Shown here piece by piece: positions 15,810 through 61,569 of a stretch of DNA of 64,000 nt. Source of the stretch: Pirellulaceae bacterium (lineage in GTDB: Bacteria; Planctomycetota; Planctomycetia; Pirellulales; Pirellulaceae); contig JADYZV010000052.1 in assembly GCA_020852965.1 (NCBI GenBank), positions 20,989-84,988 on the forward strand, in the 5' to 3' direction. The position numbers were made by a program, and so were the translations under genes. The notes under the pieces were generated by a model, which saw only the letters and a list, made by a program, of their open reading frames with translations, was not told the origin of the DNA and did no database searches. Position 1 is the stretch's first letter; each line of letters opens with the position of its first letter.

Positions 15810-16021
15810 GCAAAAGCTACCTATGGAGGAGGAAACGGAGGATACGGGAGCGGTCCACGACAAGTTTGCTTAACTCGTGACGGGGTAGAATTGTAATCCA
15901 TTGTAAATTTTACAAGTCTTTTTTTCAAAAGTGCAGTAGCGACAAGCTGTTTGTTTTCACCAGCTTACCTAAGCCGGCGTTAAAACGGGCTTCGATCTGA
16001 AATTCTCAGGAGAATTCTCCT

Positions 16022-45754: not shown

Positions 45755-46240
45755 ATGACGGAAAAGGGATTTCGAGACATTCTTGGCGCATTGTGCTCTG
45801 GCAACGTCGAATTTATTTTAATTGGGGGGCTAGCAGCCATGGCGCATGGTTCGGCGCGTGCAACGGTCGATGTCGATGTCGTCTACAGACGCACATTGGA
45901 AAACATGCACCGTATCGAACAGACACTTGCGCCGTTTGCTCCCTACTTGCGCGGAGCACCACTCGGCTTGCCATTTCGCTTTGATGTGGCCACCATTTCG
46001 TCGGGTCTTAACTTCACGCTGCGCACCTCAATTGGCGACCTTGATTTATTAGGTGAAGTCGTGGGTGGTGGAGATTTCGAACGCTTGATCACACATAGCG
46101 AAACTATCAAACTTTTTGGAAACGATATGCAGTGTGTCACGTTGGCGAAGCTAATCGAACTCAAGCGAGCCGCTGGACGGCCGAAGGATTTAGACGCTAT
46201 CGCAGAGCTTGAAACGCTACAGGACGAACTAGAATCGTAG
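45755..46240 (+). CDS. Minimal nucleotidyltransferase-superfamily protein
   Basis: IGGLAA..HGSARATVDVD (GG-x-D-x-D NTase motif), DLDL and LIELKRAAGRPKD. Confidence 0.8.
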   Translation: MTEKGFRDILGALCSGNVEFILIGGLAAMAHGSARATVDVDVVYRRTLENMHRIEQTLAPFAPYLRGAPLGLPFRFDVATISSGLNFTLRTSIGDLDLLGEVVGGGDFERLITHSETIKLFGNDMQCVTLAKLIELKRAAGRPKDLDAIAELETLQDELES

Positions 46241-46332: not shown

Positions 46333-46650
46333 TTAACTCGTTTGCGGCAAACGTGTGCGGATGATTTTCGTGGTTTGCTCGCTGGGCAAGATGGTGTCGC
46401 ACCACATCTCGCCTTCGAAGCGATAACGCACTTGGATGGCCTGCGCACTTCCGTCAGCAAAAGCAAGTTTGGCTTCGGCGAGCGTGGTGGTACGATCGTC
46501 TTTTGCGGCGCGCATTTGGACGTGCTCGACTTCCGCACCATCGCGCAAGTCGTCGAACAACTGCATCACTTGGTCCGCGCCCCACTCGGCTTGTAACAAC
46601 TCGGGAAGGGCGTCATCGATCGGCTGGTCGAATGGGTCGTCGATATTCAT
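46333..46650 (-). CDS. Acidic hypothetical protein, last gene of the nap operon
   Basis: ATGA overlap with the ferredoxin gene; no cofactor motifs. Confidence 0.75.
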   Translation of the reverse strand: MNIDDPFDQPIDDALPELLQAEWGADQVMQLFDDLRDGAEVEHVQMRAAKDDRTTTLAEAKLAFADGSAQAIQVRYRFEGEMWCDTILPSEQTTKIIRTRLPQTS

Positions 46651-47390
46651 GACTCGGGGAGCGTTGGTCGAGAGAAGGCGGGCATGAGTAATACTGCATT
46701 TTCAGGGGCGGGGCAGACGTAGCGACAAACGCCGCAACCGGTGCATATTTCTTCGCGAACCGTAGGTTTGCCCAGAGTGACTTCGATGGCTCCTTCGACA
46801 GGGCAACGCTCGCTGCAGACGGTGCAAGTCGTGCCGTGATGGGCCAAGCACAAGTGCTGAGTGATATGGGCAGTTCCCATGACGATGGGGATCGAGTGGC
46901 TGAGCACACCTGGCTCGCAGGCGGCGATACAGGGGAAGTCGCTGCACATCAGACAAGCGGCGTTATCCGCTTCAATGATCGGAGTGCCAGCCACGGCACC
47001 GAGTCGCTCAGGTGCCAAGCGGATCGCATCGTAGGGACAGGCAGTGATGCAGTCTCCGCAGCGAGTGCATCCAGCCAGGAACTGCCGCTCTTCGATGGCT
47101 CCCGGCGGACGAAACACGGGAATCGTACGGGGTGTAGCTCGACCGGACAGTCTGGTTGGAGCGACCGGATCGATTGCGATACCACCGATCGTTCTGGGAT
47201 GCGTCTTGGGAGCTTCACTATTTTGATGGTTGTTGTCCGCTTCGCTGAGTTGGCCTGAACCGTTCGGTAGGCTCAAATCGCCAGGGCGGGGATAGCGCAT
47301 GACCAGCGGCTTGTGTTTGGCTGGCGCGAGTAGCTTCCAGAGCTTGCCCTGCAGCAGATCGCGACGACTGATCTTCCGCCGAGGCGTCAC
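46647..47390 (-). CDS. napG: Polyferredoxin, NapG/NapF (MauM) family
   Basis: RPPGA..CTRCGDCITAC, CLMCSDFPCIAAC, CLAHHGTTCTVCSERC and CTGCGVCRYVC; NapF-like N-terminus. Confidence 0.75.
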   Translation of the reverse strand: MTPRRKISRRDLLQGKLWKLLAPAKHKPLVMRYPRPGDLSLPNGSGQLSEADNNHQNSEAPKTHPRTIGGIAIDPVAPTRLSGRATPRTIPVFRPPGAIEERQFLAGCTRCGDCITACPYDAIRLAPERLGAVAGTPIIEADNAACLMCSDFPCIAACEPGVLSHSIPIVMGTAHITQHLCLAHHGTTCTVCSERCPVEGAIEVTLGKPTVREEICTGCGVCRYVCPAPENAVLLMPAFSRPTLPES

Positions 47391-48238
47391 TGGCTAGCGA
47401 CCTCGAGCGGTGGGAGCATCGGCACAGCGCCGTCAACTGGGATGGCTTGATCGAGCTTGGCCGAAGGGGCGTGGCACTGTGTGCAGTTGGACCGCCAGGG
47501 GTGTGTCGACTCCATGCCTGCCCAGCCGTTGGGGCCGCCATGACAAGCGGTGCATTTTTCGCGCATCCATTGTGAGTGCGGGATCGTTGGTGGCGCTCCA
47601 GGAAAGGCTCGTTCGCCGGATTTAGGTGCTGGTAGGCCAACAAACGATGTTGCGACGCGCGCATCGACGTCCTGGAATGGGGCCGGCGGCGGCGATGCGT
47701 GGCACTGCGTGCAATTTGCCAGAAACTCGTGCGACATGACGCTGGCCTTCATGCCACCGAGTTGTGTACCTCCGGAATGGCACGCGTAGCAGGCGGCATC
47801 ATTCGTGTTTTGAATATCGTGTGGGATGACTGGTGGTGCTCCGTTGAACGCGCGGCGCGCAGCACGCAGCGCGCTGGAGGCTTCCTTGTCCGCTGCGCTC
47901 AGTTGGATCTCGGCGAACAGATCGTAGGGGCTGCTTGGCAATTCGACTAAGGTTGCTTGTAGGGCGGCCGTGGGGCCCATGGCGACTTGCGCAATCTCCG
48001 CGTAGCGAATGGCGGGAATGACTTTGTCGATAGCGGGGACGACCAGTGTTTGCGAATCTTCGCCTGATAGAGCATCTCGAACAACGGCGCGATGATGATG
48101 TCCGATTTCATCGAGAAGTCCGTGGCTGTGAAGCCCCTTGGGGGCGGGCACGCCATCGGCTAGTCCGACGAAGTAGCCGATCACAGCGACCGCGATAACC
48201 GCAGCGAGGAAGATAGTGGTGAGACGTCTCCAGATCAT
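47387..48238 (-). CDS. napB: NapB-like cytochrome c with duplicated diheme module (4 CxxCH)
   Basis: Two AF.GAPP.IPH modules; CYACH, CTQCH, CTACH, CTQCH. Confidence 0.85.
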   Translation of the reverse strand: MIWRRLTTIFLAAVIAVAVIGYFVGLADGVPAPKGLHSHGLLDEIGHHHRAVVRDALSGEDSQTLVVPAIDKVIPAIRYAEIAQVAMGPTAALQATLVELPSSPYDLFAEIQLSAADKEASSALRAARRAFNGAPPVIPHDIQNTNDAACYACHSGGTQLGGMKASVMSHEFLANCTQCHASPPPAPFQDVDARVATSFVGLPAPKSGERAFPGAPPTIPHSQWMREKCTACHGGPNGWAGMESTHPWRSNCTQCHAPSAKLDQAIPVDGAVPMLPPLEVASQ

Positions 48239-50652
48239 GACTGTACCTCAGACAATTTCCGCACGCGCACCGCACACTTCTTATAGTCGGGCTGTTTGGA
48301 AAAGGGATCGTGAGCTTCGAGCGTGCAATGGTTGATCAATTTGGTTTCGTCAAAGAACGGCACGAATACCGTTCCGCGCGGCGGTCGCCCACGGCCATCG
48401 ATCCACACGGGCAGCTCCGCTGTACCACGTCGTGATTCGATAATGATTTTTTCCCCTTGGCGAATATTGGCGGCTTGCGCATCGTCGCGATTCATTTCGA
48501 CATAGGCAGTCGGCATGGCGCGATTCAGCGGAGCGACGCGCCGAGTCATCGTGCCGGTGTGCCAGTGTTCGAGCACGCGTCCCGTGCATAACCAAAACGG
48601 ATACTGCTCGTCGGGCATCTCGGGTGGAGGCGCGTATTCGTGAAACCAAATCTGTGCTCGCCCATCGTTGGAAGACGAGTGATAAAAGTCGAATTCTTGC
48701 CCTTCGGCCACAAAGGGGTCGTCAAAAGCGGCGAAACGGAAGCGGGTCTCTCGCCACGAACCGTCAGGCTGTTCGACTACTGGCCAACGCAAACCCCGAG
48801 CTTTTACATATTCGTCGTACGGTGCTAGGTTCTTGTGCTTCATGGTGGTGAAGCGGCGATACTCTTCGAAGAGATGCTTGTCAACGTTCACATCGTAGTA
48901 ATGTTCGAACTCCCAAATGGGTACATCCTTGCCCGCCTCGTCTTTCACCGCAAAAATGAACTCGCCATCCTTGTCCTGCATCCCCTCGTGACCGAGTTCG
49001 AATAGCTTGTGCGCGATGGCGATAGTCATCCAACAATCGTCTCGCGCCTGGCCGGGGGGATCGACCATCTTGAACCATTGTTGAGTGCGGCGTTCGCTAT
49101 TGCCAAACATTCCGTTTTTCTCTACCCACAAGGCGGCAGGCAAAATCAAATCGGCCAGTCGCGTCGTGGCGGTTGGGTAGACTTCCGAGACGATCAGAAA
49201 CTTGTCTTCAAGCCCCTGCTTGTCGTTGAACAGGGCATTGAGGTTCGGCAGCGTTTGGCCTGGGTTGGTGACCTGCACGAACAGCGTGTCGATGTCACCT
49301 CCGTCGGCGGACGCTTTGGTGAACTGCTCGAACATCTTTACTGTGTGATAACCTGGGACCGCGTTGATGCTGTCGGATTTCAAATTCCACAGCTCTTCGC
49401 TCTGCTGACGGTGCTCTGGATTGGCCACCAGGCGTCCGCCAGGAAGTGCGTGCGCCAGTGTGCCCACTTCGCGCACGGTGCCACAGGCCGATGGTTGGCC
49501 CGTGAGACTGGTCGGTGCGTTGCCGGGGCGACCAAAGTGACCGCTGAGCAAGTGGACCCCATGCACGAGCGAATTGATCGCAGTTCCCATCGTGTGTTGA
49601 TTCATCCCCATGCACCACAGCGAGGTGATGCGGATGTTGCGATTGGCGAACAAGTCGGCCAGCATGCGAATCTTGTCGGCGGGCACACCGGAAAGCTCCT
49701 CGACGCGCTCCGGCGTGTAGGCCGCGATGCGTTTGCGAAATTCCTCTTCGCTGATCTGCTCGCCATGCAAAGTCGGCGTGTCGGCCTCTGCCCCGCGAAA
49801 ATTACAGTGCTTTTCGACGAATGCTTTATCGTAGTTTTCACTGGCGATCAACAGATGCATGATACCCAGCGAGATAGCCACATCGCCGTGTGGTTTCATT
49901 TCCAAGTACTCGGTGGCTGCGTCGGATGTACGCGTGCGCCGCGTGCTGATGTCAATTAACGTGACCTTGTCGCCGCGAGAACGCCGATCGATGAAACGTG
50001 AAAACAGAATCGGGTGCATTTCGGCTGGGTTGTTTCCCCAGGTGATGAGCACGTCGCATTCGTCGAGGTCTTGATAACAGCCGGCCGGTTCGTCGACTCC
50101 GTAGGTGGCCAAGAAGCCCGTCACGGCCGAAGCCATGCACAGTCGCGCGTTGGGATCGATGTGGTTGTTCCCCAACCCGCCCTTCATGAACTTTTGAGCT
50201 GCATAGCCTTCGGGAATCGTCCATTGACCGCTGCCGTAGAAAGCAAATCGCTCGGGGGCATGCATGATCCGCTGGGCGATCAAGGTGATCGCTTCGTCCC
50301 ATTCGATGGGAACCAACTCGCCGTCCTTTCGCAGCAGCGGTTGCGTGAGTCGGTCTTTTCCGTAGAGGATGCTACCGACGTGATAGCCTTTGACACACAA
50401 CAAACCTTTGTTGACATCGGCAGCTTTGTCTCCCGCGACGGCTACCACACGACCGTCTTCCACGCCAACCTGGACATGGCAACCGGTTCCGCAAAATCGA
50501 CAGGGAGCTTTATTCCACGTTACGTTGTCGCCTGTCGGCAGGCTATCAGCAGCGGCTATGACCGGCAGCGATCGGCTCGCACCGCTAACCACCATTGAAC
50601 CAGCGGCAGCCATAGCGGCCGATTTGAGAAAATTCCGGCGTTGGGTTTCCAT
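48235..50652 (-). CDS. napA: Periplasmic nitrate reductase catalytic subunit
   Basis: Tat signal RRNFLK, PCRFCGTGC..CVKG [4Fe-4S] motif, GSGQWT, NARLCMASA (Mo-Cys), MGMNQH, TGQPSACG and TGRVLEHWHTG. Confidence 0.95.
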   Translation of the reverse strand: METQRRNFLKSAAMAAAGSMVVSGASRSLPVIAAADSLPTGDNVTWNKAPCRFCGTGCHVQVGVEDGRVVAVAGDKAADVNKGLLCVKGYHVGSILYGKDRLTQPLLRKDGELVPIEWDEAITLIAQRIMHAPERFAFYGSGQWTIPEGYAAQKFMKGGLGNNHIDPNARLCMASAVTGFLATYGVDEPAGCYQDLDECDVLITWGNNPAEMHPILFSRFIDRRSRGDKVTLIDISTRRTRTSDAATEYLEMKPHGDVAISLGIMHLLIASENYDKAFVEKHCNFRGAEADTPTLHGEQISEEEFRKRIAAYTPERVEELSGVPADKIRMLADLFANRNIRITSLWCMGMNQHTMGTAINSLVHGVHLLSGHFGRPGNAPTSLTGQPSACGTVREVGTLAHALPGGRLVANPEHRQQSEELWNLKSDSINAVPGYHTVKMFEQFTKASADGGDIDTLFVQVTNPGQTLPNLNALFNDKQGLEDKFLIVSEVYPTATTRLADLILPAALWVEKNGMFGNSERRTQQWFKMVDPPGQARDDCWMTIAIAHKLFELGHEGMQDKDGEFIFAVKDEAGKDVPIWEFEHYYDVNVDKHLFEEYRRFTTMKHKNLAPYDEYVKARGLRWPVVEQPDGSWRETRFRFAAFDDPFVAEGQEFDFYHSSSNDGRAQIWFHEYAPPPEMPDEQYPFWLCTGRVLEHWHTGTMTRRVAPLNRAMPTAYVEMNRDDAQAANIRQGEKIIIESRRGTAELPVWIDGRGRPPRGTVFVPFFDETKLINHCTLEAHDPFSKQPDYKKCAVRVRKLSEVQS

Positions 50653-50782
50653 GTTCGCTTCGTTCACGAGTAATTAATGGTGTTGTTGGTTTCTAAACTG
50701 AATACTGGCCTGCGGCCCGGGCGTTGATCATATTCTATGAAATGGCAGCCGTTCAAGCGATATTATTCGGTCGCTCCGCCGA

Positions 50783-51034
50783 TCATTGCTCTTCGCTAGT
50801 GGCTTCGTCGAAGCCGACAAAGGCAATGCGGATGTCAAGCACACCTGGCAATTCTTGGACCCATTGCCAAATCTCTTGATCGTGTTGATTGGAAGTCGAA
50901 TCGACGACGATCGCAATATGGTTATCGGTAATTTCCCCAACGTCGATCGCCGCGTGGCCTCGCAGCGCTTGAAGTGTTCCCAGAAATGGCCCGTTAGGGG
51001 CGTCCAAAACAACGACAAGGCCACTGATCGGCAC
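50783..51034 (-). CDS. napD: NapD chaperone
   Basis: (M)PISGLVV...IVVDS...IQELPGV pattern; lies directly upstream of napA. GTG start inferred. Confidence 0.85.
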   Translation of the reverse strand: MPISGLVVVLDAPNGPFLGTLQALRGHAAIDVGEITDNHIAIVVDSTSNQHDQEIWQWVQELPGVLDIRIAFVGFDEATSEEQ

Positions 51035-51128
51035 TGCGCTTGCTCTCACAAACAGGGGTAGCAAATTAACTGTACTGTAGTCTATAGTTTATTACTCACT
51101 TGATAAACCTCATTTCAGGAAACTACGC

Positions 51129-51797
51129 GTGGTTCGACTCGCAAATCTTCTTTTCGCCGGAGTGGTTTGCGCAGTCATTTCGATGGTAATCGTGACTGTG
51201 ACGACTTCGGACAGGCGCGCTCCGTCGCACAGCGAGCGCGCTCATCCGCACAGTGGGCTAGCGAGCGCGACGACAGGAGTCTTGGCGAACCCCGCTACAT
51301 TTCCAATTGTGATTCGCAAGCCTGCAGGGCCGCCGCAAATCAAATTGGCAGGGACTGATCCGCAGGGGCGTTCTGCCAGCGTCGCCTGTGCTACCTGCCA
51401 CAGCGTTCGCCCTCCCAATTTCGACAACCAAACGGCTCAGTCGCTCGACGAATTCCACCAGGGTTTGCAGTTCAACCATGGCCAGCTCTCCTGTTATTCG
51501 TGCCACAATCCAGAGAATGCGGATGAATTGCGTTTGGCCGATGGAACAGCCGTCGAGTATGCCGACGTCATGACGCTGTGCACTCAGTGCCATTCGAAGC
51601 AAGCCGAATCGTTTGCACACGGAGCCCACGGTGGCATGAACGGTTTTTGGGATTTGTCGCGCGGCCCCCAAACCAAAAACAATTGCATCGACTGCCACGA
51701 TCCGCACGCACCGAACTATCCCAAAATGATTGTCGATTTCAAGCCTCGCGATCGTTTCCTGGATCTCCAAAGGGCCGAGCATGACAACCATAAATGA
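51129..51797 (+). CDS. Membrane-anchored or exported tetraheme cytochrome c
   Basis: N-terminal hydrophobic helix; CATCH, CYSCH, CTQCH, CIDCH. Confidence 0.9.
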   Translation: MVRLANLLFAGVVCAVISMVIVTVTTSDRRAPSHSERAHPHSGLASATTGVLANPATFPIVIRKPAGPPQIKLAGTDPQGRSASVACATCHSVRPPNFDNQTAQSLDEFHQGLQFNHGQLSCYSCHNPENADELRLADGTAVEYADVMTLCTQCHSKQAESFAHGAHGGMNGFWDLSRGPQTKNNCIDCHDPHAPNYPKMIVDFKPRDRFLDLQRAEHDNHK

Positions 51798-52731
51798 ACG
51801 GCCCGAAGCGGGCAATCGTGAGCTGCCGATCGTCGAGAACTTCTCGCGTCGCGCGGCGGTCAAAGGTGGATTTGCAACCCTGGGAGCGGCCGCCTTCGTC
51901 GCCGCTATATCACCACTGCGTCACGCTGCGCAAAATACGTCGGCAGCCGAGTTCTTGCAGAAGCACTACACCGAGCTCAGCGACGAGCAAAAAGCTGATG
52001 TGATTGCTCGCTTGGAAGCGGAAACCAAAAAGAACTACGGTGCCGAGGTGACCATCGGCGACGACCGCCCCATTCCCGGTACGAAGTTTGTCTACGCCAT
52101 CAATTTGAGTGTGTGCAACGGCAATGGTAAATGCGTCGAAGCCTGTCACAAAGAAAACAATCACGACCGAGCAACCCACCAGTCCTACATTCGCATTGTT
52201 GAAATGCCCAAGGGGACGCTCGATATGGAACAGGGCTCGACCACCTACACCGGTGTGGTCCCCAAAGATGACAAGTTCTATCTGCCGGTCCAGTGCCAGC
52301 AGTGCGATGAACCGCCTTGCGTCGACGTCTGCCCAGTGAAGGCGACATGGAAGGAGGAGGACGGCATCGTGGTGGTCGACTACAACTGGTGTATCGGTTG
52401 TCGCTACTGCGAAGCGGCTTGCCCCTATCACGCGCGACGATTCAATTGGAAAAAACCCGAAGTGCCTGCCGACCAGGTCAACCCTGATCAGAGTTATCTC
52501 AGCAACCGCATTCGCCCGGTTGGAGTGGTCGAGAAGTGTACCTACTGCTTACATCGCACGCGGCGCGGCCGCTTACCAGCTTGCTTAGAAGCCTGCCCAA
52601 CTGGGGCGCGCGTGTTTGGAAACATTCTCGACGAAGATTCCAATATTCGCTGGATCCTCGATAACAAGCGCGTCTATATTCTCAAGGAAGAACTCGGTAC
52701 CAAGCCGGCGTTCTTCTATTACTTCGATTAG
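51781..52731 (+). CDS. NrfC/DsrO-type 4Fe-4S protein with Tat signal
   Basis: SRRAAVKGG + hydrophobic stretch; CNGNGKCVEAC, CQQCDEPPCVDVCP, CIGCRYCEAACP and KCTYC..PACLEACP. Confidence 0.9.
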   Translation: MTTINERPEAGNRELPIVENFSRRAAVKGGFATLGAAAFVAAISPLRHAAQNTSAAEFLQKHYTELSDEQKADVIARLEAETKKNYGAEVTIGDDRPIPGTKFVYAINLSVCNGNGKCVEACHKENNHDRATHQSYIRIVEMPKGTLDMEQGSTTYTGVVPKDDKFYLPVQCQQCDEPPCVDVCPVKATWKEEDGIVVVDYNWCIGCRYCEAACPYHARRFNWKKPEVPADQVNPDQSYLSNRIRPVGVVEKCTYCLHRTRRGRLPACLEACPTGARVFGNILDEDSNIRWILDNKRVYILKEELGTKPAFFYYFD

Positions 52732-52758
52732 TGCTTCATTCCCACATTTGGTTTGGAG

Positions 52759-52786
52759 GTAGTGGACTCGCAACCTCGTCCACTAC
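52759..52786. repeat. Collapsed GTAG REP doublet
   Basis: GTAGTGGACTCGCAACCTCGTCCACTAC equals the left and right arms fused at GGAC. Confidence 0.8.
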
Positions 52787-52833
52787 CCCTGAAATTAAAG
52801 TTGGATGAAGCAGTAGTCGCCTCAGGAAAACGA

Positions 52834-54096
52834 ATGAGTAGCATCAGCACACCTCCGACCACCGACAGCACATCGCACATCACCTCTTATCCCAGGTTCA
52901 TCGGGCGATCGCTGTGGCTTGCGACCGAAGGCTCGTTCGGCTTCTACGCGTGGATGACCATGTTAACCGCGCTGTTTTTAGTCGGTGCCAATGCTTGGGC
53001 TCACCAAGTTGCTGGTGGCATGATCAGTACCCACATGACCGATCACGTCAGTTGGGGACTGTACATCGCCAATTTCACTTTTATGGTCGGACTGGCTGCC
53101 GGTGGTGTGATGATGGTCATCCCAGCCTATCTGTATCACGACCGCAAGATGCACGACGTAGTGATCATTGGTGAGCTGCTAGCGGTCTCCGCGATCGTGA
53201 TGTGCCTGATGTTCGTCGTGGCCGACCTGGGCCGTCCCGATCGCTTCTGGCACTTGATTCCCGGTTTGGGGAAATTTAATTTTCCGATCTCGATGCTGAC
53301 TTGGGACGTGATCGTCCTGAACGGCTATCTGGTATTGAACCTGCACATCTGTGGCTATCTGCTGTATATGCGCTTTCTTGGCCGGCAGCCAAATCCAGTG
53401 TGGTACGTGCCGTTCGTGATGTTGTCGATCGTGTGGGCCATCTCGATTCACACGGTCACCGCATTCTTATATTGCGGCCTTGGTGGTCGACCCTTTTGGA
53501 ACACCGCTTTGCTGGCTCCTCGGTTTCTCGCCTCAGCCTTTGTGTCTGGGCCATCGTTCATCATTGTCACGATGGTGTTGATGAAGAAGCTGACGAGCGT
53601 GCAAGGGCTCGAACAGCCGATCGCCACGCTGACCAAAATCATTCGCGTCACCATCCTGATCAACTTGCTGATGGTAGCCTCCGAGTTGTTTACGGAGTTC
53701 TACACCGGCGGAACACACGTCAGTTCGGCCAAGTACTTGTTCTTCGGGCTGCACGGCAAGACAGCCTTGGTACCCTGGACGTGGACCGCAATCGGTTTAA
53801 ATATCACGGCTGCCTGTTTGTTCCTCTGGCCGGGGCTGCTATCCCCCAAGTTCCGCCTGCTGCTCGTGGCGGCCTGCTTGATGGCCTTTGTCGGAACCTG
53901 GATCGAAAAGGGAATGGGGCTGATCATTCCTGGCTTTATCCCCAGCACGCTGCACGAGGTCGTCGAGTATGTCCCGAGTATGCTGGAATGGAAGGTTTCT
54001 GTCGGTGTGTGGGCCTTTGGGTTGATGGTCTTTACCATCGCCATCAAAGCAGCCCTACCTACGCTCCGTCAGCCGGCACAGAGCACCGATACCTAG
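52834..54096 (+). CDS. NrfD/DsrP/PsrC-family quinol-interacting membrane subunit
   Basis: ~10 TM helices; VSWGLYIANFTF.VGLAAG, DLGRPDRFW, SMLTWD and IHTVTAFL. Confidence 0.9.
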   Translation: MSSISTPPTTDSTSHITSYPRFIGRSLWLATEGSFGFYAWMTMLTALFLVGANAWAHQVAGGMISTHMTDHVSWGLYIANFTFMVGLAAGGVMMVIPAYLYHDRKMHDVVIIGELLAVSAIVMCLMFVVADLGRPDRFWHLIPGLGKFNFPISMLTWDVIVLNGYLVLNLHICGYLLYMRFLGRQPNPVWYVPFVMLSIVWAISIHTVTAFLYCGLGGRPFWNTALLAPRFLASAFVSGPSFIIVTMVLMKKLTSVQGLEQPIATLTKIIRVTILINLLMVASELFTEFYTGGTHVSSAKYLFFGLHGKTALVPWTWTAIGLNITAACLFLWPGLLSPKFRLLLVAACLMAFVGTWIEKGMGLIIPGFIPSTLHEVVEYVPSMLEWKVSVGVWAFGLMVFTIAIKAALPTLRQPAQSTDT

Positions 54097-54224: not shown

Positions 54225-54824
54225 CTACTCCGATACATCCGGTTCTTGCTCCGGCTCAAAGCTGACCTTGGCGTAGATTTGCTCCAACTGCAATTGGCAA
54301 TCGATCGATTCGAGAACGATTGGTTGAGTCGGTTCGTGGTAGACAATATATAGCCATTGCTCGTTAGCGGTCCGTCGGTAGATCTCGACGAGGGGACTCA
54401 CTTGCGAGGCGAGCACGTATTCGCGCAACGATGGCAGCGACTGATAGTGCCGCCATTTGGTTCCGCGATCGTAGCCTTCCGTGGTATTCGATAGTACTTC
54501 GACCAGCACGCGAGGATTGAGCAGCGTATCGAGTTCGGCATCCTCGAACTTGGGTTGTTCGCAAGCGACGACCACATCGGGGTAGACGTACAAGCCAGTC
54601 TCGCTGACCTTCACACGCATATCACCTTGGTAGACTTCGCAATCGCGATTGTCGAGTTGTCCATGAAGCTTGGCAAAGACGTTCCCCGCAATCAAGTTAT
54701 GTGACCTAGTGGCACCGGCCATGGCAAATGTCTCCCCGCGAAAGAACTCGCTTCGATACTCGGCCTTGCGCTCTTGCACCAAGTATTGTTCAGGAGTCAT
54801 GCGTGTTTTCGCAACAGAAGACAT
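54225..54824 (-). CDS. Uma2 (DUF820) family endonuclease-fold protein
   Basis: MTPEQYL..E...SE, MAG....HNLI, YPDVVV, VEVLSNTT..YDRG.K...Y and EYVL. Confidence 0.92.
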   Translation of the reverse strand: MSSVAKTRMTPEQYLVQERKAEYRSEFFRGETFAMAGATRSHNLIAGNVFAKLHGQLDNRDCEVYQGDMRVKVSETGLYVYPDVVVACEQPKFEDAELDTLLNPRVLVEVLSNTTEGYDRGTKWRHYQSLPSLREYVLASQVSPLVEIYRRTANEQWLYIVYHEPTQPIVLESIDCQLQLEQIYAKVSFEPEQEPDVSE

Positions 54825-54911
54825 AGCCGCCTCCGAAGGTATAGACATGAGTGCGTCGTCAAAATGAAGAACGAGGGACGCACTGGTGCTGTGTCCACAT
54901 TTAATTTGAGG

Positions 54912-55052: not shown

Positions 55053-57503
55053 CTAACGGCGGAGGTTGAGAAGTTCGTCGAACAACTGCTGCGTGGCAGT
55101 TATAACGCGAGAATTGCTTCTGTACTGTGTCGACGCCAGTACGAGCGTCACCAAGTCCTTGCCGATATCGGTGTTGGATAGCTCGCGGGCACCGGCCACC
55201 ACGGTGCCAATACCGTTCTCGCCTGGCCTGCCTTGAATGGGCAAGCCTGTGTTGACTCCTTGGGCGTACAAGTTCTGACCACGCTGTTCAAGCCCTTCAG
55301 GGTTGGTGAAGCGGGCTAGTTGTATCTGCCCAAGATCTCGGGAGATACCATTGCTGAACACCCCGCGAACCGTGCCGTCTTCACCGATGACGTAGCTGGT
55401 GAGCGAACCGGGAGGCGAACCGTCCTGTCGAGCTGCGGCCAGACTGGCTTTGTCCGTTGCCAAGCCAGAAACCGATGAGAAATCAAGTTCAAACTGCATC
55501 GGCGACACGCTCGGCGTGTTGTATCGGTCGATCGACACCGTCGAATTGGTCGATGATATGAAATTGCCGTTGCCATCAAAAGTGAGCACGCCGCTGCCGA
55601 CGGAAATGCCCGTCCCCGTGCGGGACGAGTTATCAGCCGAATCTGCATACCAACGGTAGGTCGTCGCCGAGTCGGTGCGTTTTTCAAGTACCGCCGTAAC
55701 GCGCGTACGGATTGGCTGACCAAGCGTGTCGTACGTAACGAAGTCCGAAACCGCGCTTTGTCCCTTAGCCTCTTGGACTGTACCGAATGCCAAGTTCGGG
55801 ACATCGACGACGCCGTTTTGATCCGTGATGCGGAAGCTGGTCAAATCGACGTCAACCGCATTGTCGACGCCGTTGTTCGATACGAAGCGTATCTGCCCAT
55901 TGCGAATATAGGCACCCGGTGCAAGCGTCCCCGTTTCGCCTTGAATGGTATTCTTGGAAACCGGTAAGGGATGCGTCGCATCGGTCGTGGTCGTTTGAAT
56001 TCCCATCGAACTTTGCATGAAACTTACCAAGTCTTGCACGGTTGAACTGGCCGTAATCGTGAAGTTCTTGGCCTCCAAGCTACGCCCACCCTTGCGAGCA
56101 CTGAACGACAGATTGCCAACTTTGAACGGCTCAGAGTACTCCAAGCCATCGCGGCGCGTGACGTTGACCAGCAATGTGTTACTGTCGATTGCAGGACCAT
56201 CCAAGTCGACCTGCTGATTGCCAACGATGGCCAAATTGCTGATCTCGGCGTCCGTCTTCGAATCGGTATAGTCCTGCCCCGGCGAAATTGAATCTACCAA
56301 GTAGAATGAATTCTGGTCGGTGGCGGTATTGCGATAAATGCGAATCGTATCGTAGGCGGGAAAACCTCCCGTCGCAGGCGGGACGGGAGGCGTCGGCAAA
56401 TTCGTCAAGTGAATTCGACCGTCGACAATATTTTGCGGGCCAACCAAGATCGAGGGTTTGGTCTCCGGATCTCCGGCGTGTTGATAGGTGATCATGTACG
56501 AGTAGTTGCCATTGAGCACGCCGTCGTCGAGCGTTGGGCCACCGACTACGCTGCCATCATCGTCGTAAGTACTTCCAGTCGCAACGGTTGCCAGTTGAAA
56601 GAACTCGCTCCCATTGGCGTCGGTGCGATAGATGCGAACCTGTGAGTACTGGCCAGGCGCGGTGGGGAGATTGGCCAACTGAATCTCGTTGTCAGGCAAT
56701 CCATTGCCGGTGGGAACGGTGACCGACAATGCTGCGCTGGGCACGCTCTCTTGGCCTGCCGCGTCGACGAAGGCAAAACGATATTGATACACAGCTCCCT
56801 CGACCAGCGTGCCCGATCCCTGGTTGTGCGAAACCGTGATGCCTGAAGTGGTGGCCGTATTACCGCTGGCGAGAAGTACGCCGCTGGCGTCGGGGCGTGG
56901 TATGGCCGCATCACCCAATACGCCACTTTGGATCACCTCGGCCGTGTCGGCAATGTCTCCGTTGGGAGTCAGCGAGCCTTCCATCGCAACGTTCTTGGTC
57001 GCTTGGGCGACCGATTCACTTCCCAAGGGAATGGCCAGTGGAGTCAATTGTGTCGTTTGAATTTTGAATTTATCGTCGATGCCGAAGCCCATCAGCCGGT
57101 TTCCCGTGGGGGTCACCAATTCGTTGGCGCTATTCAGGCTGAAAATTCCGGCGCGCGTGTACAATTGCTCATTTCCCGCCCCCTGCACGATGAACAGTCC
57201 ATCCCCTTGAATGGCTAGGTCGGATGGGCTGGAACTAATCTCGACCGTTCCTTGAGAGAAGTTGGGAGTGACAGCAGCAACTCGGACGCCCAACCCAGTT
57301 TGCCGCGGGTCAGTACCCCCATTGTCCGCAGTCGGGGAAGCGCCCAGAGAGAGCGTTTGCAAGAACTGTGTGGCAAAGACGACTTCCGAAGATTTGAAGC
57401 CGACGGTTTGCGAGTTGGCGAGATTGTTTCCCAACACATCGATCTGTTTCTCAGCCGCGTTGAGCCCAGTGAGCGATGTGCTGAGTGACGATGCAAGACC
57501 CAT
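55053..57503 (-). CDS. flgE: Flagellar hook protein FlgE with a large internal insertion
   Basis: N-terminal GNNLANSQTVGFK, DLAIQGDGLF, YTRAG.F; C-terminal ELSNTD...Q..Y..NSRVI; 816 aa; follows flgD. Confidence 0.92.
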   Translation of the reverse strand: MGLASSLSTSLTGLNAAEKQIDVLGNNLANSQTVGFKSSEVVFATQFLQTLSLGASPTADNGGTDPRQTGLGVRVAAVTPNFSQGTVEISSSPSDLAIQGDGLFIVQGAGNEQLYTRAGIFSLNSANELVTPTGNRLMGFGIDDKFKIQTTQLTPLAIPLGSESVAQATKNVAMEGSLTPNGDIADTAEVIQSGVLGDAAIPRPDASGVLLASGNTATTSGITVSHNQGSGTLVEGAVYQYRFAFVDAAGQESVPSAALSVTVPTGNGLPDNEIQLANLPTAPGQYSQVRIYRTDANGSEFFQLATVATGSTYDDDGSVVGGPTLDDGVLNGNYSYMITYQHAGDPETKPSILVGPQNIVDGRIHLTNLPTPPVPPATGGFPAYDTIRIYRNTATDQNSFYLVDSISPGQDYTDSKTDAEISNLAIVGNQQVDLDGPAIDSNTLLVNVTRRDGLEYSEPFKVGNLSFSARKGGRSLEAKNFTITASSTVQDLVSFMQSSMGIQTTTTDATHPLPVSKNTIQGETGTLAPGAYIRNGQIRFVSNNGVDNAVDVDLTSFRITDQNGVVDVPNLAFGTVQEAKGQSAVSDFVTYDTLGQPIRTRVTAVLEKRTDSATTYRWYADSADNSSRTGTGISVGSGVLTFDGNGNFISSTNSTVSIDRYNTPSVSPMQFELDFSSVSGLATDKASLAAARQDGSPPGSLTSYVIGEDGTVRGVFSNGISRDLGQIQLARFTNPEGLEQRGQNLYAQGVNTGLPIQGRPGENGIGTVVAGARELSNTDIGKDLVTLVLASTQYRSNSRVITATQQLFDELLNLRR

Positions 57504-57566
57504 CGCAGTTCCCTCGTTGTAATTGGAGCGAGGTGCCTGCTAATGGCGCAATGCCAGCATCCTCGA

Positions 57567-58001
57567 TTACGTTTCGACAATTTCACGAATGTTAGAGATA
57601 TCGACCACTGAGTCTCCAATGTGTACTGATACTGTGCGTTTGCTGGAATCTTTTGCGTCGGTTTGAACCGACACGCGATCGACCTTCCCCTCGACGTCTT
57701 TCGCGTTACTGTCGAGCGCCTTGACGGTTTTCCCAATCATCGAGCTAGCCATCGAGAGCTCTTGCCCGGCTGCTAGATTGGACAAAGTAGAAGTGAGGCG
57801 GTCGTTCGAGCCAATTTCGCGGATTTGGCTCATTTGAGTCAACATCTGCGAATTGTCCATCGGTTGCAACGGATCTTGATTCTGCATTTCGGTGAGCAGT
57901 AGACCTAGAAACTGGTCAGTGTCTAGGTCAGCCATCCCGTTCCCATTGCTTTTGGTAGCCAAACTACTGGAGGAACCGCCTACGCCTGGAATGCTAGTCA
58001 T
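57567..58001 (-). CDS. flgD: Flagellar hook capping protein FlgD
   Basis: DQFLGLLLTEMQNQDPLQPMDNSQMLTQMSQ. Confidence 0.95.
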   Translation of the reverse strand: MTSIPGVGGSSSSLATKSNGNGMADLDTDQFLGLLLTEMQNQDPLQPMDNSQMLTQMSQIREIGSNDRLTSTLSNLAAGQELSMASSMIGKTVKALDSNAKDVEGKVDRVSVQTDAKDSSKRTVSVHIGDSVVDISNIREIVET

Positions 58002-58091
58002 CGTTCATGTTTCCTGAGAATTGGATGCGTCACCAAGCTTGAATCCATAGGTGTTATGTGACGCTTAAGTCAAGAGATAATCGCTATGGGC

Positions 58092-58150
58092 TGGTGCTTG
58101 GTGCTTGGTGCTTGGTGCTTGGTGCTTAGTGCTTGGTGCTTGGTGTTTGG
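58092..58150. repeat. Heptamer array (TGGTGCT)~8
   Basis: Read directly; between fliK and flgD. Confidence 0.92.
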
Positions 58151-58260
58151 GCGACGACGTCACTTTGAATTTGCCACTTGGACGTTAGCCTCAGCTTAAC
58201 TCGGGAGCCGTGGCTACCGACAAAACGGTTAAAGCACGGAACGACTCCAGAGAGGCCTGC

Positions 58261-60051
58261 TTACGCTTGTAAATCGACACCTGCTAGCATTTGCCACGCT
58301 AGTTCACGTGGGGCGATACCATCGATCGCGGCATCATATCGTCCAGGGCGTTGCTGCTGCGCGGCCAAGCGGCGATAGTCCACTTCGCGGCTCGTTTGCT
58401 GCCCGCCTTCTCCGCCATGGGATTGGTCATACGACGCTTGCGGATTGCCATTTCCGCTGGCTGCATCGGCATTGTTGTCTGCAACTTCAACGTGAAAGGA
58501 ACTAATCTGGAAGCCCTGCTCTGCCAGTCGACTACGCAAACTAGGCAGGCTCTCCAGAATGACATCGCGCGCGGTGCTTGTTTCCGTGGTCAGTTTGGCC
58601 GTCATCGTACGCCCCTCCATACGGACCTGGACATTGAGCGACCCCAGTTGCGGAGGGTGGAGTCTGATATTGATTTGCCCACCCATCGGTCCCAACCGAG
58701 AAAAGCTGCGCGAGACACGCTGCACCAATCGCACACGCTCGGCTTGCGTAAGCGCATCGGGACGCTGCGTTTCGTTGGTAGCCGGCTTGGCGTCTGCACG
58801 CTGAGCCGCTGTGGCATTGCTCTTCGTTTCGACACCCTCGGGAGCCGTGGTCGAGTTTGCACCCAGATCACCACCAAGCGAGCTCGCCGAGTCCATTGGG
58901 ATGACCGCTGAGGATGCGTTGGCAACACTGGCGACCGCAGTTTCTGCCGCAGTCATTGACGCACCTACGGGGACGATCGCAGAATCTAGTGACTGGCTGA
59001 CGGAATCGGCTGGATGATTAGGCTGCTCCATTGCAGCAGCGCTATCCGCAGTTGCCGCAGCGGTGTCGTCTTCGCCGCCGTGATTGTCGGGCGTTGGGGC
59101 AGCCTGGCCTGCTTCGTTGGCGGAATTATGCTGTGCACCGAACGTTGAGGGCCTATCGGCAGCGCGTTCAAACCACTTCTCCCTGCGATCGCCACGCGAC
59201 TTTCCCTCGCCTGAGGTGGCTACGGCGAAAGCTTTTTGACCGTTTTGAGATTCGCCTGCATCGGCGGCAAAATGCGAACCAGACTCAGCATGGACTCGCT
59301 CGCCTTCGCGTGCACTAGGCGCCTCGGCTGAGTCGTTGGTGAGGAGCTCGGCCTGCTCTGGCGTTTGCGCCTGCGCTACTTGATACCCTCCCTGGTCGCC
59401 CCCCTGCCCTTCCCCTGAATGAGTCGACGAAACACTGACCGACTGTCCGTCGGCGCTGGGCGCTGTTGTGCCAGCACCTTCAGCCTCAAGACCCTTTTGC
59501 GGTTGGTCGGTGGCAGAATCAGCCTCGTTTGCCTGCAATGTCGATCGTTTACTGGCGTTTCCAGTATCCTTCGAGTTCTGAGCGGATTGCTCCTTGGGGA
59601 CAGCTAAGGCATCGATGGTGCCATCTGCCGTCGCGTCGTCGTCCGTTGTTTGGATCGCAGCGGGTTCAATGGCGGGAGTGGTGTTTAGCAGAGCGAGCTG
59701 TCCTTCAGTCGCTCCGTTTTCCGCCTTATCTTCAGCGGTCGACTCCACGTCATCAGTTTCGTTTTCGCTCCGCTCATCTACCGAACTTGACTTCGCGGCG
59801 GATGTGCTATCACTCGCCGACTGGTTTGCCGAATCACTTCGATGATTTGACCTGCTCGGGGGATCGATGTCGCTGGACCGAGCTGCGGAAGTCGGCTCGC
59901 GCTGCGCACTCAGCGGCGCAGGTAGGCTCAACAATTGTTCAAACAGACTCGACTGAAGCGATTGCGCGCTGCCGGCGCTGGAGCTCAGATGAAAGCGCGC
60001 AGAAGTCCTGCGCGTGGAATCAGCGCTCAATGATGGTATTGCCCCGTCCAT
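58261..60051 (-). CDS. fliK: Flagellar hook-length control protein FliK
   Basis: Long Ala/Ser/Asp-rich region, then IRLHPPQLGSLNVQV...L..LRSRLAEQGFQI. Confidence 0.92.
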   Translation of the reverse strand: MDGAIPSLSADSTRRTSARFHLSSSAGSAQSLQSSLFEQLLSLPAPLSAQREPTSAARSSDIDPPSRSNHRSDSANQSASDSTSAAKSSSVDERSENETDDVESTAEDKAENGATEGQLALLNTTPAIEPAAIQTTDDDATADGTIDALAVPKEQSAQNSKDTGNASKRSTLQANEADSATDQPQKGLEAEGAGTTAPSADGQSVSVSSTHSGEGQGGDQGGYQVAQAQTPEQAELLTNDSAEAPSAREGERVHAESGSHFAADAGESQNGQKAFAVATSGEGKSRGDRREKWFERAADRPSTFGAQHNSANEAGQAAPTPDNHGGEDDTAAATADSAAAMEQPNHPADSVSQSLDSAIVPVGASMTAAETAVASVANASSAVIPMDSASSLGGDLGANSTTAPEGVETKSNATAAQRADAKPATNETQRPDALTQAERVRLVQRVSRSFSRLGPMGGQINIRLHPPQLGSLNVQVRMEGRTMTAKLTTETSTARDVILESLPSLRSRLAEQGFQISSFHVEVADNNADAASGNGNPQASYDQSHGGEGGQQTSREVDYRRLAAQQQRPGRYDAAIDGIAPRELAWQMLAGVDLQA

Positions 60052-60121
60052 AACGTCCCCCCGGACTTTGGAATTTCAACGCACCTGCCAATTCAACATC
60101 GGCTTATGCGGGTGGGGAAGT

Positions 60122-60784
60122 CTAGTCGAACGCGTTTTCTGCCCGCGCCTTTTCAATTAAACTAGCCTTGGGGTCGCCCCGCCGCAGCGTGCTGAGGATT
60201 TCATTCAGCTTGGCGGTCTCTTCGGGGGTGGTGAACTCCCCCAGTACTTTCTTGCGTTTATCCAGAGGCATGCCTTTAACAATCGCGACTACGTCATCCA
60301 TTTTATCGTCATTCAGAAATGTGATGAGCTGGTCCTTGGCCAGTTCTGGGGACAGTATTTCAAGCGTGCGTTGGACCTCCTTTAGGCTTTCATTGGCCAA
60401 ATCCTGTTGAGTCGTTTCAAGAAAACGGTAGAAATCGTTTTTGCGTCGATCAAAATTGGCAATTACCAGTTTGTGCTCGCTCAGCAACTCTTCCACTTGA
60501 CGTTTGTACTGCAGGATGGAACGCTCGCGCATATCGAGGCTCTTGCTCTGGCTGGCCCGCTCCGATTCGACATCTTCGTAGGTTGGATTGGGAGACTGCT
60601 TGGACTGCTCGAGCATTTTCTGCAATTGGTCGCCGGTAATGTCGACTCCATTGAGTAGCGCGATCGCCTTGAGAATAGTCACCTTATTCAGATTTCCGCG
60701 CACGGCTGCCATCGCCAAGACTATTCCCTGGGCGAGTACCGTCCCAATGCAGAACGCGACGAAGAGTTTAGTGAGCATGCGCAT
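60122..60784 (-). CDS. MotE/YlxF-like flagellar protein
   Basis: N-terminal TM helix, coiled coil and MgtE_N-like repeats (L..LSPELAK..; VKGMPLDKRKKVL); sits between fliJ and fliK as ylxF does in Bacillus. Confidence 0.65.
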   Translation of the reverse strand: MRMLTKLFVAFCIGTVLAQGIVLAMAAVRGNLNKVTILKAIALLNGVDITGDQLQKMLEQSKQSPNPTYEDVESERASQSKSLDMRERSILQYKRQVEELLSEHKLVIANFDRRKNDFYRFLETTQQDLANESLKEVQRTLEILSPELAKDQLITFLNDDKMDDVVAIVKGMPLDKRKKVLGEFTTPEETAKLNEILSTLRRGDPKASLIEKARAENAFD

Positions 60785-60799
60785 GTCGGCACTCCGCAA

Positions 60800-61252
60800 T
60801 TAGGACGATTGTGATTCTTTCCAATACTTGAAGCCGGCCCATTGGTCGATCGCAGTTTGTTCGCGCTGCGCCTCTAACGTATTCCATTGGGCTCGCTGTT
60901 TGTCGCGCAGCTTTTCGAGCGATCGCAGCGCTTGCTCCTGATTGACCAGTTTCAATCGCCGCTTTTCGCACTCGGTCTCGATCAGAGCGATCTGCTCTCG
61001 AAGCTGGCTGACTTGTTGTAGTAAGTGCAATTGATAGCGTTGTGATTCGATCAGTCGCTGCGTGTTGATGGCTCCGACACTCGACGCCGACTGAAGCGGT
61101 ACTTGCTGCGCATGTTCCCGCAACAGCTCGTCGACTTGTCCCTCTACTTTGGTCTTGGCTGCCAGCGCTTCTTTGTACGAACCCGCTGCCGCATCGCGCT
61201 CCCGCTCTCGCAGGCCGACGATGTTCTGCATGCGAAACTTAAAATGCGACAT
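60800..61252 (-). CDS. fliJ: Flagellar export chaperone FliJ
   Basis: FKFRMQNIVGLRERE; LEKLRDKQ...E..EQ..ID; follows fliI. Confidence 0.88.
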   Translation of the reverse strand: MSHFKFRMQNIVGLRERERDAAAGSYKEALAAKTKVEGQVDELLREHAQQVPLQSASSVGAINTQRLIESQRYQLHLLQQVSQLREQIALIETECEKRRLKLVNQEQALRSLEKLRDKQRAQWNTLEAQREQTAIDQWAGFKYWKESQSS

Positions 61253-61254
61253 GG

Positions 61255-61370
61255 CTTGGTTCTTGGTTCTTAGTTCTTAGTTCTTAGTTCTTAGTTCTTG
61301 GTTCTTGGTTCTTGGTTCTTAGTTCTTAGTTCTTGGTTCTTGGTTCTTAGTTCTAGTTCTAGTTCTAGTT
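61255..61370. repeat. Mixed heptamer array (TTCTTGG/TTCTTAG)~14 plus (TAGTTC)x3
   Basis: Read directly; ends 2 nt upstream of the fliJ ATG. Confidence 0.92.
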
Positions 61371-61569
61371 TCTCTATCGACTTGTCGTGCGCGCTGCGCG
61401 GTTAAACATTCGATCGCTTCGACAAGCATACCTGGCTGCCGAAGAGCTCAGCCCTCACAGGTCATTTCGAATCACAAACTGATGAACTTAAGGTTGTTGG
61501 CGTTAGCCAAGGTTGACTGTGTACGAGCCGTGGCAATCGCCAAACCGGCTAGTACAGGAGTGCGATGCA

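Follow-up and report, generated by a model that had tools for sequence, protein, structure and literature searches.

Organization of the gene cluster

The periplasmic nitrate reductase (Nap) gene cluster discussed here occupies positions 46333-54096 of a 64,000-nucleotide stretch of contig JADYZV010000052.1 from a Pirellulaceae bacterium; this whole stretch is referred to as the window. The cluster consists of eight genes in two divergent transcription units, five on the minus strand and three on the plus strand (Table 1). The minus-strand operon encodes NapD, NapA, a tandem NapB, a ferredoxin and a small protein, orf105, and the plus-strand trio encodes a multihaem cytochrome c, an iron-sulfur (FeS) protein related to NrfC and a membrane subunit related to NrfD. 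These eight genes most probably constitute one self-contained respiratory unit, in which Nap would be fed from quinol through the NrfD-type module rather than through NapC or NapGH. An earlier note on this DNA, the original prediction, had described this gene content on two strands with the divergent starts ~94 bp apart, and all eight genes are present as described.

Family assignments were made with Pfam, NCBIfam, sequence searches against solved structures, and motif and hydropathy scans. The divergent starts are separated by 94 bp when napD is counted from GTG 51034, the start that fits the homologues, and by 64 bp when it is counted from the first possible TTG at 51064. Overlaps of 4 nucleotides link the successive genes for NapA, NapB, the ferredoxin and orf105, and the ATG of the nrfC-like gene at 51781 overlaps the stop of the cytochrome gene.

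Table 1. Coordinates of the eight genes and the divergent intergenic region within the window
Feature	Position	Strand	Remarks
orf105	46333-46650	-	105 residues; last gene of the nap operon
NapF/NapG-family ferredoxin	46647-47390	-	247 residues; four Cys clusters
Tandem NapB, four-haem cytochrome c	47387-48238	-	283 residues; four CxxCH; Pfam NapB match
NapA, catalytic molybdenum subunit	48235-50652	-	likely start ATG 50652; open reading frame (ORF) reaches GTG 50667
NapD, chaperone of the NapA signal peptide	50783-51034	-	Pfam NapD
Intergenic (promoter) region separating the divergent napD and cytochrome genes	51035-51128	.	94 bp
Four-haem cytochrome c, first gene of the trio	51129-51797	+	222 residues; four CxxCH
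NrfC/PsrB/DsrO-type FeS protein	51781-52731	+	likely start ATG 51781; ORF opens at 51730
NrfD-family membrane subunit	52834-54096	+	likely start ATG 52834; ORF opens at TTG 52753

The nitrate reductase, its chaperone and a duplicated NapB

NapA aligns over its full length with the NapA structures 3ML1 (C. necator), 2NYA and 1OGY, a set that represents the enzymes of C. necator, E. coli and R. sphaeroides, with E values of 2e-204 to 7e-197, and its identity to E. coli NapA is 43% over the full length. The FeS motif CRFCGTGC...C and the molybdenum-ligand cysteine in ARLCMASA align with those of C. necator NapA 3ML1, and the twin-arginine translocation (TAT) motif reads QRRNFL. The NapA models of NCBIfam outscore the next-best family, the alpha subunit of formate dehydrogenase, by more than 380 bits. 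The scores themselves fall below both equivalog cut-offs, with 862 against 904 bits for NF010055 and 828 against 930 bits for TIGR01706; this shortfall is narrow, and the protein is better placed in a divergent NapA clade than assigned to another enzyme. The window NapD matches the Pfam family PF03927 with an E value of 2e-4, which is below the cut-off, and the family is also recognised in 21 of the 35 orthologues found at related loci, at best with an E value of 4e-9; judged from these matches, the assignment is weak from the window protein alone and solid for the family.

Canonical NapB carries two haems in ~150 residues, whereas the partner encoded in the window has 283 residues, is duplicated, carries four haems and possesses a conserved membrane helix. 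Its CxxCH motifs are situated at residues 150, 176, 229 and 252, the single hydrophobic helix spans residues 9-27, and the match to Pfam NapB has an E value of 5e-9. An alignment of tandem NapB sequences further reveals two repeats of the pattern GAPPxxPH...CxxCH...H...CxQCH. The tetrahaem NapB that had been proposed earlier is thus borne out by the four CxxCH motifs of the window protein and by the presence of four haems in 63 of 66 homologues. The invariance of Gly21 and Gly25 of the helix in all the phyla speaks for a kept membrane anchor rather than a cleaved signal peptide.

The trio of cytochrome, NrfC-like protein and NrfD-like protein

The cytochrome of the trio contains CxxCH motifs at residues 87, 122, 151 and 186, preceded by an N-terminal hydrophobic helix at residues 7-25. 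It matches the Pfam family Paired_CXXCH_1 (E 3e-12), with weak matches to NrfB-like and MtrC-like families, and its nearest solved structure is E. coli NrfB, again a weak match (E 0.016). Four haems are found in 75 of 76 homologues.

The NrfC-like protein, of 317-333 residues, consists of FeS domains only, with four cysteine clusters and the TAT motif SRRAAV. It matches Pfam Fer4_11 with an E value of 3e-22, its best NCBIfam match is DsrO (185 bits, cut-off 200), and its nearest solved structures are PsrB (2VPW_B) and ActB of alternative complex III (ACIII). All 15 cysteine residues are conserved without exception across 74 homologues. The first FeS motif (positions 52114-52146, residues 129-139) reads CNGNGKC, and the presence of asparagine in place of the second cysteine suggests a 3Fe-4S cluster. 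The same asparagine occurs in 30 of 37 Planctomycetota, the window included, and the four-cysteine form CxGCxxC occurs in every NrfC-like protein of Verrucomicrobiota and Myxococcota examined. Such a distribution hints at a lineage-specific change of cluster type, from 4Fe-4S to 3Fe-4S, in most Planctomycetota.

The NrfD-like protein matches Pfam NrfD (PF03916) with an E value of 2e-38 and 133 bits against a cut-off of 25.8, and NCBIfam DsrP (NF045798) with 428 bits, above the cut-off of 350. Its AlphaFold model contains ten long helices; the mean predicted local distance difference test score (pLDDT) of 64 and the predicted template modelling score of 0.68 make the model only moderately confident, and it was used for the helix count and the fold class, not for residue sites. 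In structure it comes closest to the ActC subunits of four ACIII complexes, with E values of 1e-9 to 4e-8 and template modelling (TM) scores of 0.57-0.61, in contrast to a TM score of 0.32 with the eight-helix PsrC. ActC is also the best sequence match among solved proteins, at an identity of only about 17-19%. Within its own family the NrfD-like protein is 64-88% identical across phyla, and the invariant ionisable residues in its predicted helices are His134, Glu141, Asp158, Asp185, His198, His233, Arg257, Arg298, Glu311, Glu385, Lys386 and Glu412. It is an integral membrane subunit of the ActC/DsrP type and is presumed to carry the quinol site.

The annotation of this gene in databases deserves comment. 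NCBI gives the homologues P0002, P0007, P0008, P0013 and P0014 the name 'sulfate reduction electron transfer complex DsrMKJOP subunit DsrP', and proteins so named and linked to Nap are found in Rubripirellula, Rhodopirellula, Roseimaritima and other genera. The name arises because the model NF045798 passes its cut-off (428 against 350). It is misleading here, since no DsrM, DsrK, DsrJ or DsrAB lies alongside, and in the Nap context it looks like a systematic misannotation. An exact-sequence look-up of the 447-residue NrfD ORF gave no match. The gene of the window is represented in the protein collection by a 311-residue product (P0055) with 100% identity and 70% coverage, and the start of the deposited gene call seems to be misplaced by about 110 codons in the downstream direction.

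Linkage of the trio to nap across phyla

The co-occurrence of the trio with nap, which the original prediction had put forward as a check, was examined in both directions and is found in both. In the forward direction, the NrfD-like alignment was scanned against one genome per GTDB species, in which at least 585 stretches encode relatives; the best 80 of these were fetched with 10-kb flanks and are the loci referred to in this work. Planctomycetota contribute 39 loci, Myxococcota 18 (Sorangium and Archangium among the carriers), Verrucomicrobiota 17, Methylomirabilota two and Sumerlaeia one, and a few are unclassified. Complete genomes with the cluster include those of Adhaeretor mobilis HG15A2, Stieleria magnilauensis TBK1r, Sorangium cellulosum So ce56 and Archangium gephyra, and cultivable carriers exist in Rhodopirellula, Stieleria and Archangium. 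NapA adjoins the trio in 70 of the 70 loci with enough flank, and in each of the 10 that lack NapA the sequence breaks off within 650 bp upstream of the trio. In the reverse direction, the alignment of tandem NapB was scanned against metagenome contigs, and those of at least 6 kb were assessed. A complete trio is present on 25 contigs and a partial trio at the contig end on two, which together make 27 of the 27 testable contigs; the other seven end at or just past napA, and no counter-example, that is, a tandem NapB without the trio, was found among the metagenome contigs of at least 6 kb.

Three gene orders are observed. Most loci have the divergent arrangement of the window, L017, L019, L024, L032 and L050 have a co-linear order of trio-napD-napA-napB, and in L069 and L071 napDAB lies upstream on the same strand. 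The linkage between nap and the trio is kept in all three orders and in at least five phyla. Clustering of all flanking ORFs in the 80 loci revealed no other recurrent neighbour family beyond a handful of loci. Mean pairwise identity is 70% for NapA, 73% for the NrfC-like protein, 69% for the NrfD-like protein, 49% for the cytochrome and 41% for NapB, and the pairwise distance matrices correlate with r of 0.55-0.78. We also note that in L073, a Myxococcales metagenome-assembled genome (MAG), the NrfC-like and NrfD-like proteins are encoded by one ORF of 738 residues, which matches the fusion published for Lacipirellula parvula (PMC6995999).

Absence of canonical quinol dehydrogenases from the window

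The original prediction had stated that the window contains no napC, napH or nrfA. Searches by tblastn with NapC, NapH, NrfA and NrfB of E. coli (MG1655) indeed gave no match in the 64-kb window, and no NrfH is present in it. Only two ORFs of the window, counted in any frame, contain more than one CxxCH motif, and these encode the two cytochromes of the cluster; a 1055-residue ORF at 12696-15863 on the minus strand has one CxxCH motif. Homologues of E. coli NapC and of NapH are each absent from 159 of 161 sources. The NapC-like matches in the other two are nrfH genes beside nrfA, and NapH-like matches also occur in only two.

Genes resembling nrfH and nrfA lie a few kb past the trio at L064:14079-16121 (an Opitutaceae MAG) and at L056:13007-14912 (a Gemmatales MAG). 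Judging from this gene content, nitrate could be carried all the way to ammonium at these two loci.

Ferredoxin and orf105

The identity of the ferredoxin, which had been left as 'G/F', can be narrowed. In NCBIfam it scores highest against the NapG/MauM and NapF models, none of which reaches its cut-off (NapG 113 bits, NapF 64 bits), and its core, 38% identical to E. coli NapG and 28% to NapF, is NapG-like. The N-terminus is NapF-like, as the family keeps the S-R-R-x-L-L motif without a hydrophobic region after it, like E. coli NapF and unlike NapG. An identity as an exported NapG carrier is rejected because of the absence of a hydrophobic signal region in the family and of NapH, and the same two features lead us to read the protein as a cytoplasmic NapF-like factor, which probably acts in maturation and not as a carrier. 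A homologue of the ferredoxin was detected in only 43 genome loci.

orf105 encodes a small acidic protein without a signal peptide, predicted to be cytoplasmic. It has no match in Pfam or NCBIfam; 83 homologues were found, every one named 'hypothetical', and the gene adjoins nap in 58 loci. Trp23, Gln73, Tyr76, Trp83 and Asp85 are invariant. The confident AlphaFold model (pLDDT 84) has an alpha/beta fold, and the fold search gave no significant match in the PDB, none being better than an E value of 0.02. Its best hits were to folds of the PA94/EagT6 type and the PsbP type, with TM scores of about 0.5 and E values of about 0.09, and no function was assigned from them. orf105 is a conserved part of the unit and would be a further cytoplasmic accessory factor in the scheme described below.

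Intergenic region and transcription

The intergenic region contains a box, CTG[CT]AC-N4-5-AGT[GC]TATA, that is common to the window and its close relatives (the regions of L001, L002, L004, L027 and L043 were compared). The sequence AAACCTCATTT of the window region also occurs in L002, L004 and L043. The intergenic regions of these three loci contain a 10-bp inverted repeat, GAGGTTTCGC...GCGAAACCTC, of which the window keeps AAACCTCATTT. The box and the repeat may represent a promoter or operator. A scan of the region for generic sigma-70 promoters and terminators gave no more sites than shuffled sequence.

Near-exact matches to the DNA of the window occur in metagenomes from wastewater and activated sludge. 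In four wastewater metatranscriptomes, contigs of the same run cover the napA, cytochrome, nrfC-like and nrfD-like genes, and the depth over 44.9-46.6 kb is zero. Both halves of the unit are thus transcribed in situ in wastewater communities. A cultured Phycisphaerae strain reduces nitrate and has higher napA and napB expression with nitrate (PMC10945688); these genes may be of another cluster type. The supplementary material of the eLife paper that describes strain ZRK32 gives no information about NrfD-like genes.

Flanking genes

The flanks of the window are unrelated to nap and encode a Uma2 nuclease, flagellar hook and export proteins, a cyclopropane fatty acid synthase and a DUF1559 protein. 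The unit is bordered on one side by a 161-residue ORF without a family match (45755-46240) and, after the NrfD-like gene, by a gene for a putative endonuclease of the Uma2 family on the opposite strand (54225-54848). These two are not kept beside the cluster in other genomes, which fits a unit acquired as a block. Further along, a flagellar group unrelated to nap lies at 55053-63608 on the minus strand and encodes an 816-residue FlgE-like hook protein, a FliK-like hook-length protein, the FliI ATPase and FliH.

Proposed electron transfer and its alternatives

In the proposed scheme, menaquinol would be oxidised at the ten-helix NrfD-like subunit, and the TAT-exported NrfC-like protein would relay the electrons over its four FeS clusters, one of which is probably 3Fe-4S in most Planctomycetota. 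They would then move to the membrane-anchored four-haem cytochrome and from there to the membrane-anchored tandem four-haem NapB. NapA would be the end point, where nitrate would be reduced to nitrite in the periplasm, and NapD and the NapF-like ferredoxin would serve the maturation of NapA in the cytoplasm. We infer the direction and order of the electron transfer, as we do the physical association of the parts and any energy conservation. The role originally suggested for the trio, namely that of the quinol dehydrogenase missing from Nap, is supported by the two-way linkage, its persistence through at least five phyla and three gene orders, and the rarity of NapC and NapH.

An extension of the scheme, which we offer more tentatively, is that the trio, the tandem NapB and NapA form one membrane-bound supercomplex in which the ActC/DsrP-type subunit takes up or pumps protons. 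Several features fit such an arrangement. The NrfD-like protein is as conserved as NapA (69% against 70%), many ionisable residues are invariant in its predicted helices, and two glycines are invariant in the NapB anchor. The difference of about 0.5 V between menaquinol and nitrate fits as well. If true, periplasmic nitrate reduction would be directly energy-conserving in Planctomycetota, Verrucomicrobiota and Myxococcota, contrary to the textbook description of Nap as a non-coupling, redox-balancing enzyme.

Other explanations of the cluster were weighed against a dedicated quinol-to-Nap unit. The trio could act more broadly as a general quinol:cytochrome c oxidoreductase, a miniature ACIII that serves several acceptors (nitrite reductase, N2O reductase, oxidases) and came to lie beside nap through joint transfer. 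The structural similarity of the NrfD-like protein to ActC is compatible with this role, as are the ACIII-like six-gene clusters located beside Nar or oxidase genes in related planctomycetes (PMC10732223) and the nrfHA-like genes that L064 and L056 carry a few kb away. We nevertheless consider it unlikely, because the nap linkage holds both ways wherever it is testable and survives rearrangement, no second terminal enzyme recurs in the flanks, and the trio co-varies with the tandem NapB, which is a partner specific to Nap. It is very unlikely that the anchored four-haem NapB is itself a quinol dehydrogenase like NapC or CymA, with the trio being accessory or otherwise used. NapB does resemble NapC in having one N-terminal membrane helix and four haems, and the two helix glycines are invariant across phyla; however, it has no match to Pfam NapC/NirT, E. 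coli NapC has no match in the window, the sequence is clearly a tandem of two NapB-type repeats, and the constant presence of the trio would be left unexplained.

We give still less credence to the reduction of another oxyanion (chlorate, selenate, arsenate or other) by the NapA-like enzyme, or to its working oxidatively. The scores below both NCBIfam equivalog cut-offs would permit such a function, whereas the lead of the NapA models over formate dehydrogenase alpha, the full-length alignment to three NapA structures with the FeS motif and molybdenum-ligand cysteine kept, and the presence of NapD and NapB-type partners point to nitrate, as does the Phycisphaerae strain that reduces nitrate and induces napAB, with the reservation already made on the cluster type of its genes. 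The least probable account is that the adjacency has no functional meaning and is the frozen accident of one ancestral island spread horizontally. The patchy distribution over distant phyla, the 60-90% identity and the unrelated flanks do indicate horizontal transfer as a block, but at cytochrome identities down to about 30% a neutral adjacency would have decayed, and the gene order has changed at least twice with the linkage kept.

Several points weigh against a self-contained unit that feeds Nap from quinol. The absence of NapC and NapH covers the window and the loci, so that napC or napGH may be present elsewhere in the genomes. NapA lies under both equivalog cut-offs and its clade is divergent. 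Eight haems and four FeS clusters make a long chain, and the placement of both cytochromes in series is a guess. The evidence for co-regulation is weak because the transcripts are fragmentary, low-depth assembled contigs from which neither strand nor condition can be read. A strictly aerobic lifestyle is ascribed to many hosts, and the 2026 description of a Novipirellula strain gives no support for anaerobic respiration (PMC12910023). In that strictly aerobic Novipirellula, napA is listed in an 'incomplete set' (PMC12910023); in contrast to this listing, N. maiorica SM1 (L058) carries the whole cluster.

Earlier reports and significance

Bacteria reduce nitrate by two main routes, and Nap is one of them. 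The electron supply of Nap is taught as NapC or NapGH, to which Qcr has recently been added. The phyla that carry the cluster dominate soils, wastewater and marine particles. Judged from the sequences assembled here, the cluster is a real, widespread and so far uncharacterised Nap variant of at least five bacterial phyla. It has three predicted departures from canonical Nap, namely an NrfD/ActC-type quinol module, a tandem four-haem anchored NapB and the conserved orf105.

A review of NrfD-containing complexes covers Nrf, Psr, ACIII, Dms, Hyb, Arr, Ttr, Qrc, Sre, Nhc, Dsr, Mcc, Fqo and Soe, and the word Nap is absent from it (PMC8076601). In Lacipirellula parvula, NapA was described as sharing an operon with an FeS subunit that is fused to an NrfD-like one (PMC6995999). 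A study of tunnel-biofilm MAGs reported that OFTM8 and OFTM33, our loci L003 and L006, have an NrfD-containing cluster 'downstream of Nap', and calls such clusters potentially novel ion-translocating complexes (PMC10732223). The literature search for a tetrahaem NapB or an NrfCD-like partner of Nap returned nothing beyond two passing mentions of adjacency; the Deferrivibrio paper that ranked at its top concerns unrelated Psr-type NrfD genes and was set aside.

In surveys, napA of the carrier phyla is counted as an orphan or 'incomplete' gene (PMC12910023), and the NrfD-like partner is currently annotated as polysulfide reductase or, wrongly, as DsrP. Recognising the unit corrects this annotation and alters the reading of nitrate-reducing potential in 'aerobic' genomes of Planctomycetota, Verrucomicrobiota and Myxococcota. 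The cluster would also offer a compact five-subunit model for energy transduction by NrfD/ActC-type subunits, a question common to ACIII, Dsr, Qrc and Nrf.

Comparison with known systems

The membrane subunit falls within the NrfD/PsrC superfamily by its PF03916 match, its NrfD fold and the adjacent NrfC-type FeS protein with four clusters. Among the members of this superfamily, the Qrc complex is excluded by the scores of QrcC (150 against a cut-off of 400) and QrcD (33 against 570), by the lack of any QrcB-like gene except NapA, and by QrcA being a six-haem cytochrome. The DsrJOP module, the half of the DsrMKJOP complex of sulfur metabolism that faces the periplasm, provides the closest curated models, DsrP (428 against 350) being above and DsrO (185 against 200) just below the cut-off. 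Membership in DsrMKJOP is rejected, as no DsrM, DsrK, three-haem DsrJ or DsrAB is found in the window or recurs in the loci; DsrJ has three haems, whereas the window cytochrome has four and no match to the DsrJ model.

The resemblance to the E. coli NrfBCD system lies in the arrangement of the parts, in which a soluble periplasmic reductase receives its electrons from three kinds of part, namely NrfD as the quinol dehydrogenase in the membrane, NrfC with four clusters and TAT export, and a multihaem cytochrome. The NrfC-like protein of the window shares 33% identity with E. coli NrfC, and NrfB, as noted, is the nearest solved structure to the cytochrome, albeit weakly. The systems differ in the terminal enzyme, which is NrfA in NrfABCD and NapAB here, and in the haem number of the cytochrome, five in NrfB and four in the window. 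Furthermore, E. coli NrfD has no tblastn match in the window, where the membrane subunit has ten helices. The unit is accordingly not an NrfABCD system, given that no NrfA is encoded in the window and that the NCBIfam scores are 115 against 378 for NrfC and 30 against 348 for NrfD.

ACIII shares more with the trio at the level of the membrane and FeS subunits, ActC being the best match to the NrfD-like protein and the FeS domain of ActB being among the best matches to the NrfC-like protein. ActA is the membrane-anchored multihaem cytochrome of ACIII, and the window cytochrome has an ActA-like N-terminal hydrophobic segment. In both cases quinol is, or in the window would be, oxidised and a periplasmic cytochrome reduced. 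ACIII differs in having a five-haem cytochrome and an oxidase as acceptor, compared with four haems and Nap here. The trio is not a member of ACIII, as it has no molybdopterin-like ActB1 domain, no ActD, ActE or ActF, and no conserved genes after the NrfD-like gene.

With canonical Nap, whether NapABC or NapAB with NapGH, the unit has in common NapA, NapD, a NapB-type cytochrome and a NapF/G-type ferredoxin. It differs in that NapC and NapH are absent, NapB is duplicated and anchored, and orf105 is an extra component. A precedent for the supply of Nap by a route other than NapC, and by an energy-conserving one, comes from Campylobacter jejuni, in which the electrogenic menaquinol:cytochrome c reductase Qcr feeds Nap (PMC6195509). 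Qcr belongs to the Rieske/cytochrome b complexes, has no sequence relationship to the trio and is not encoded with nap.

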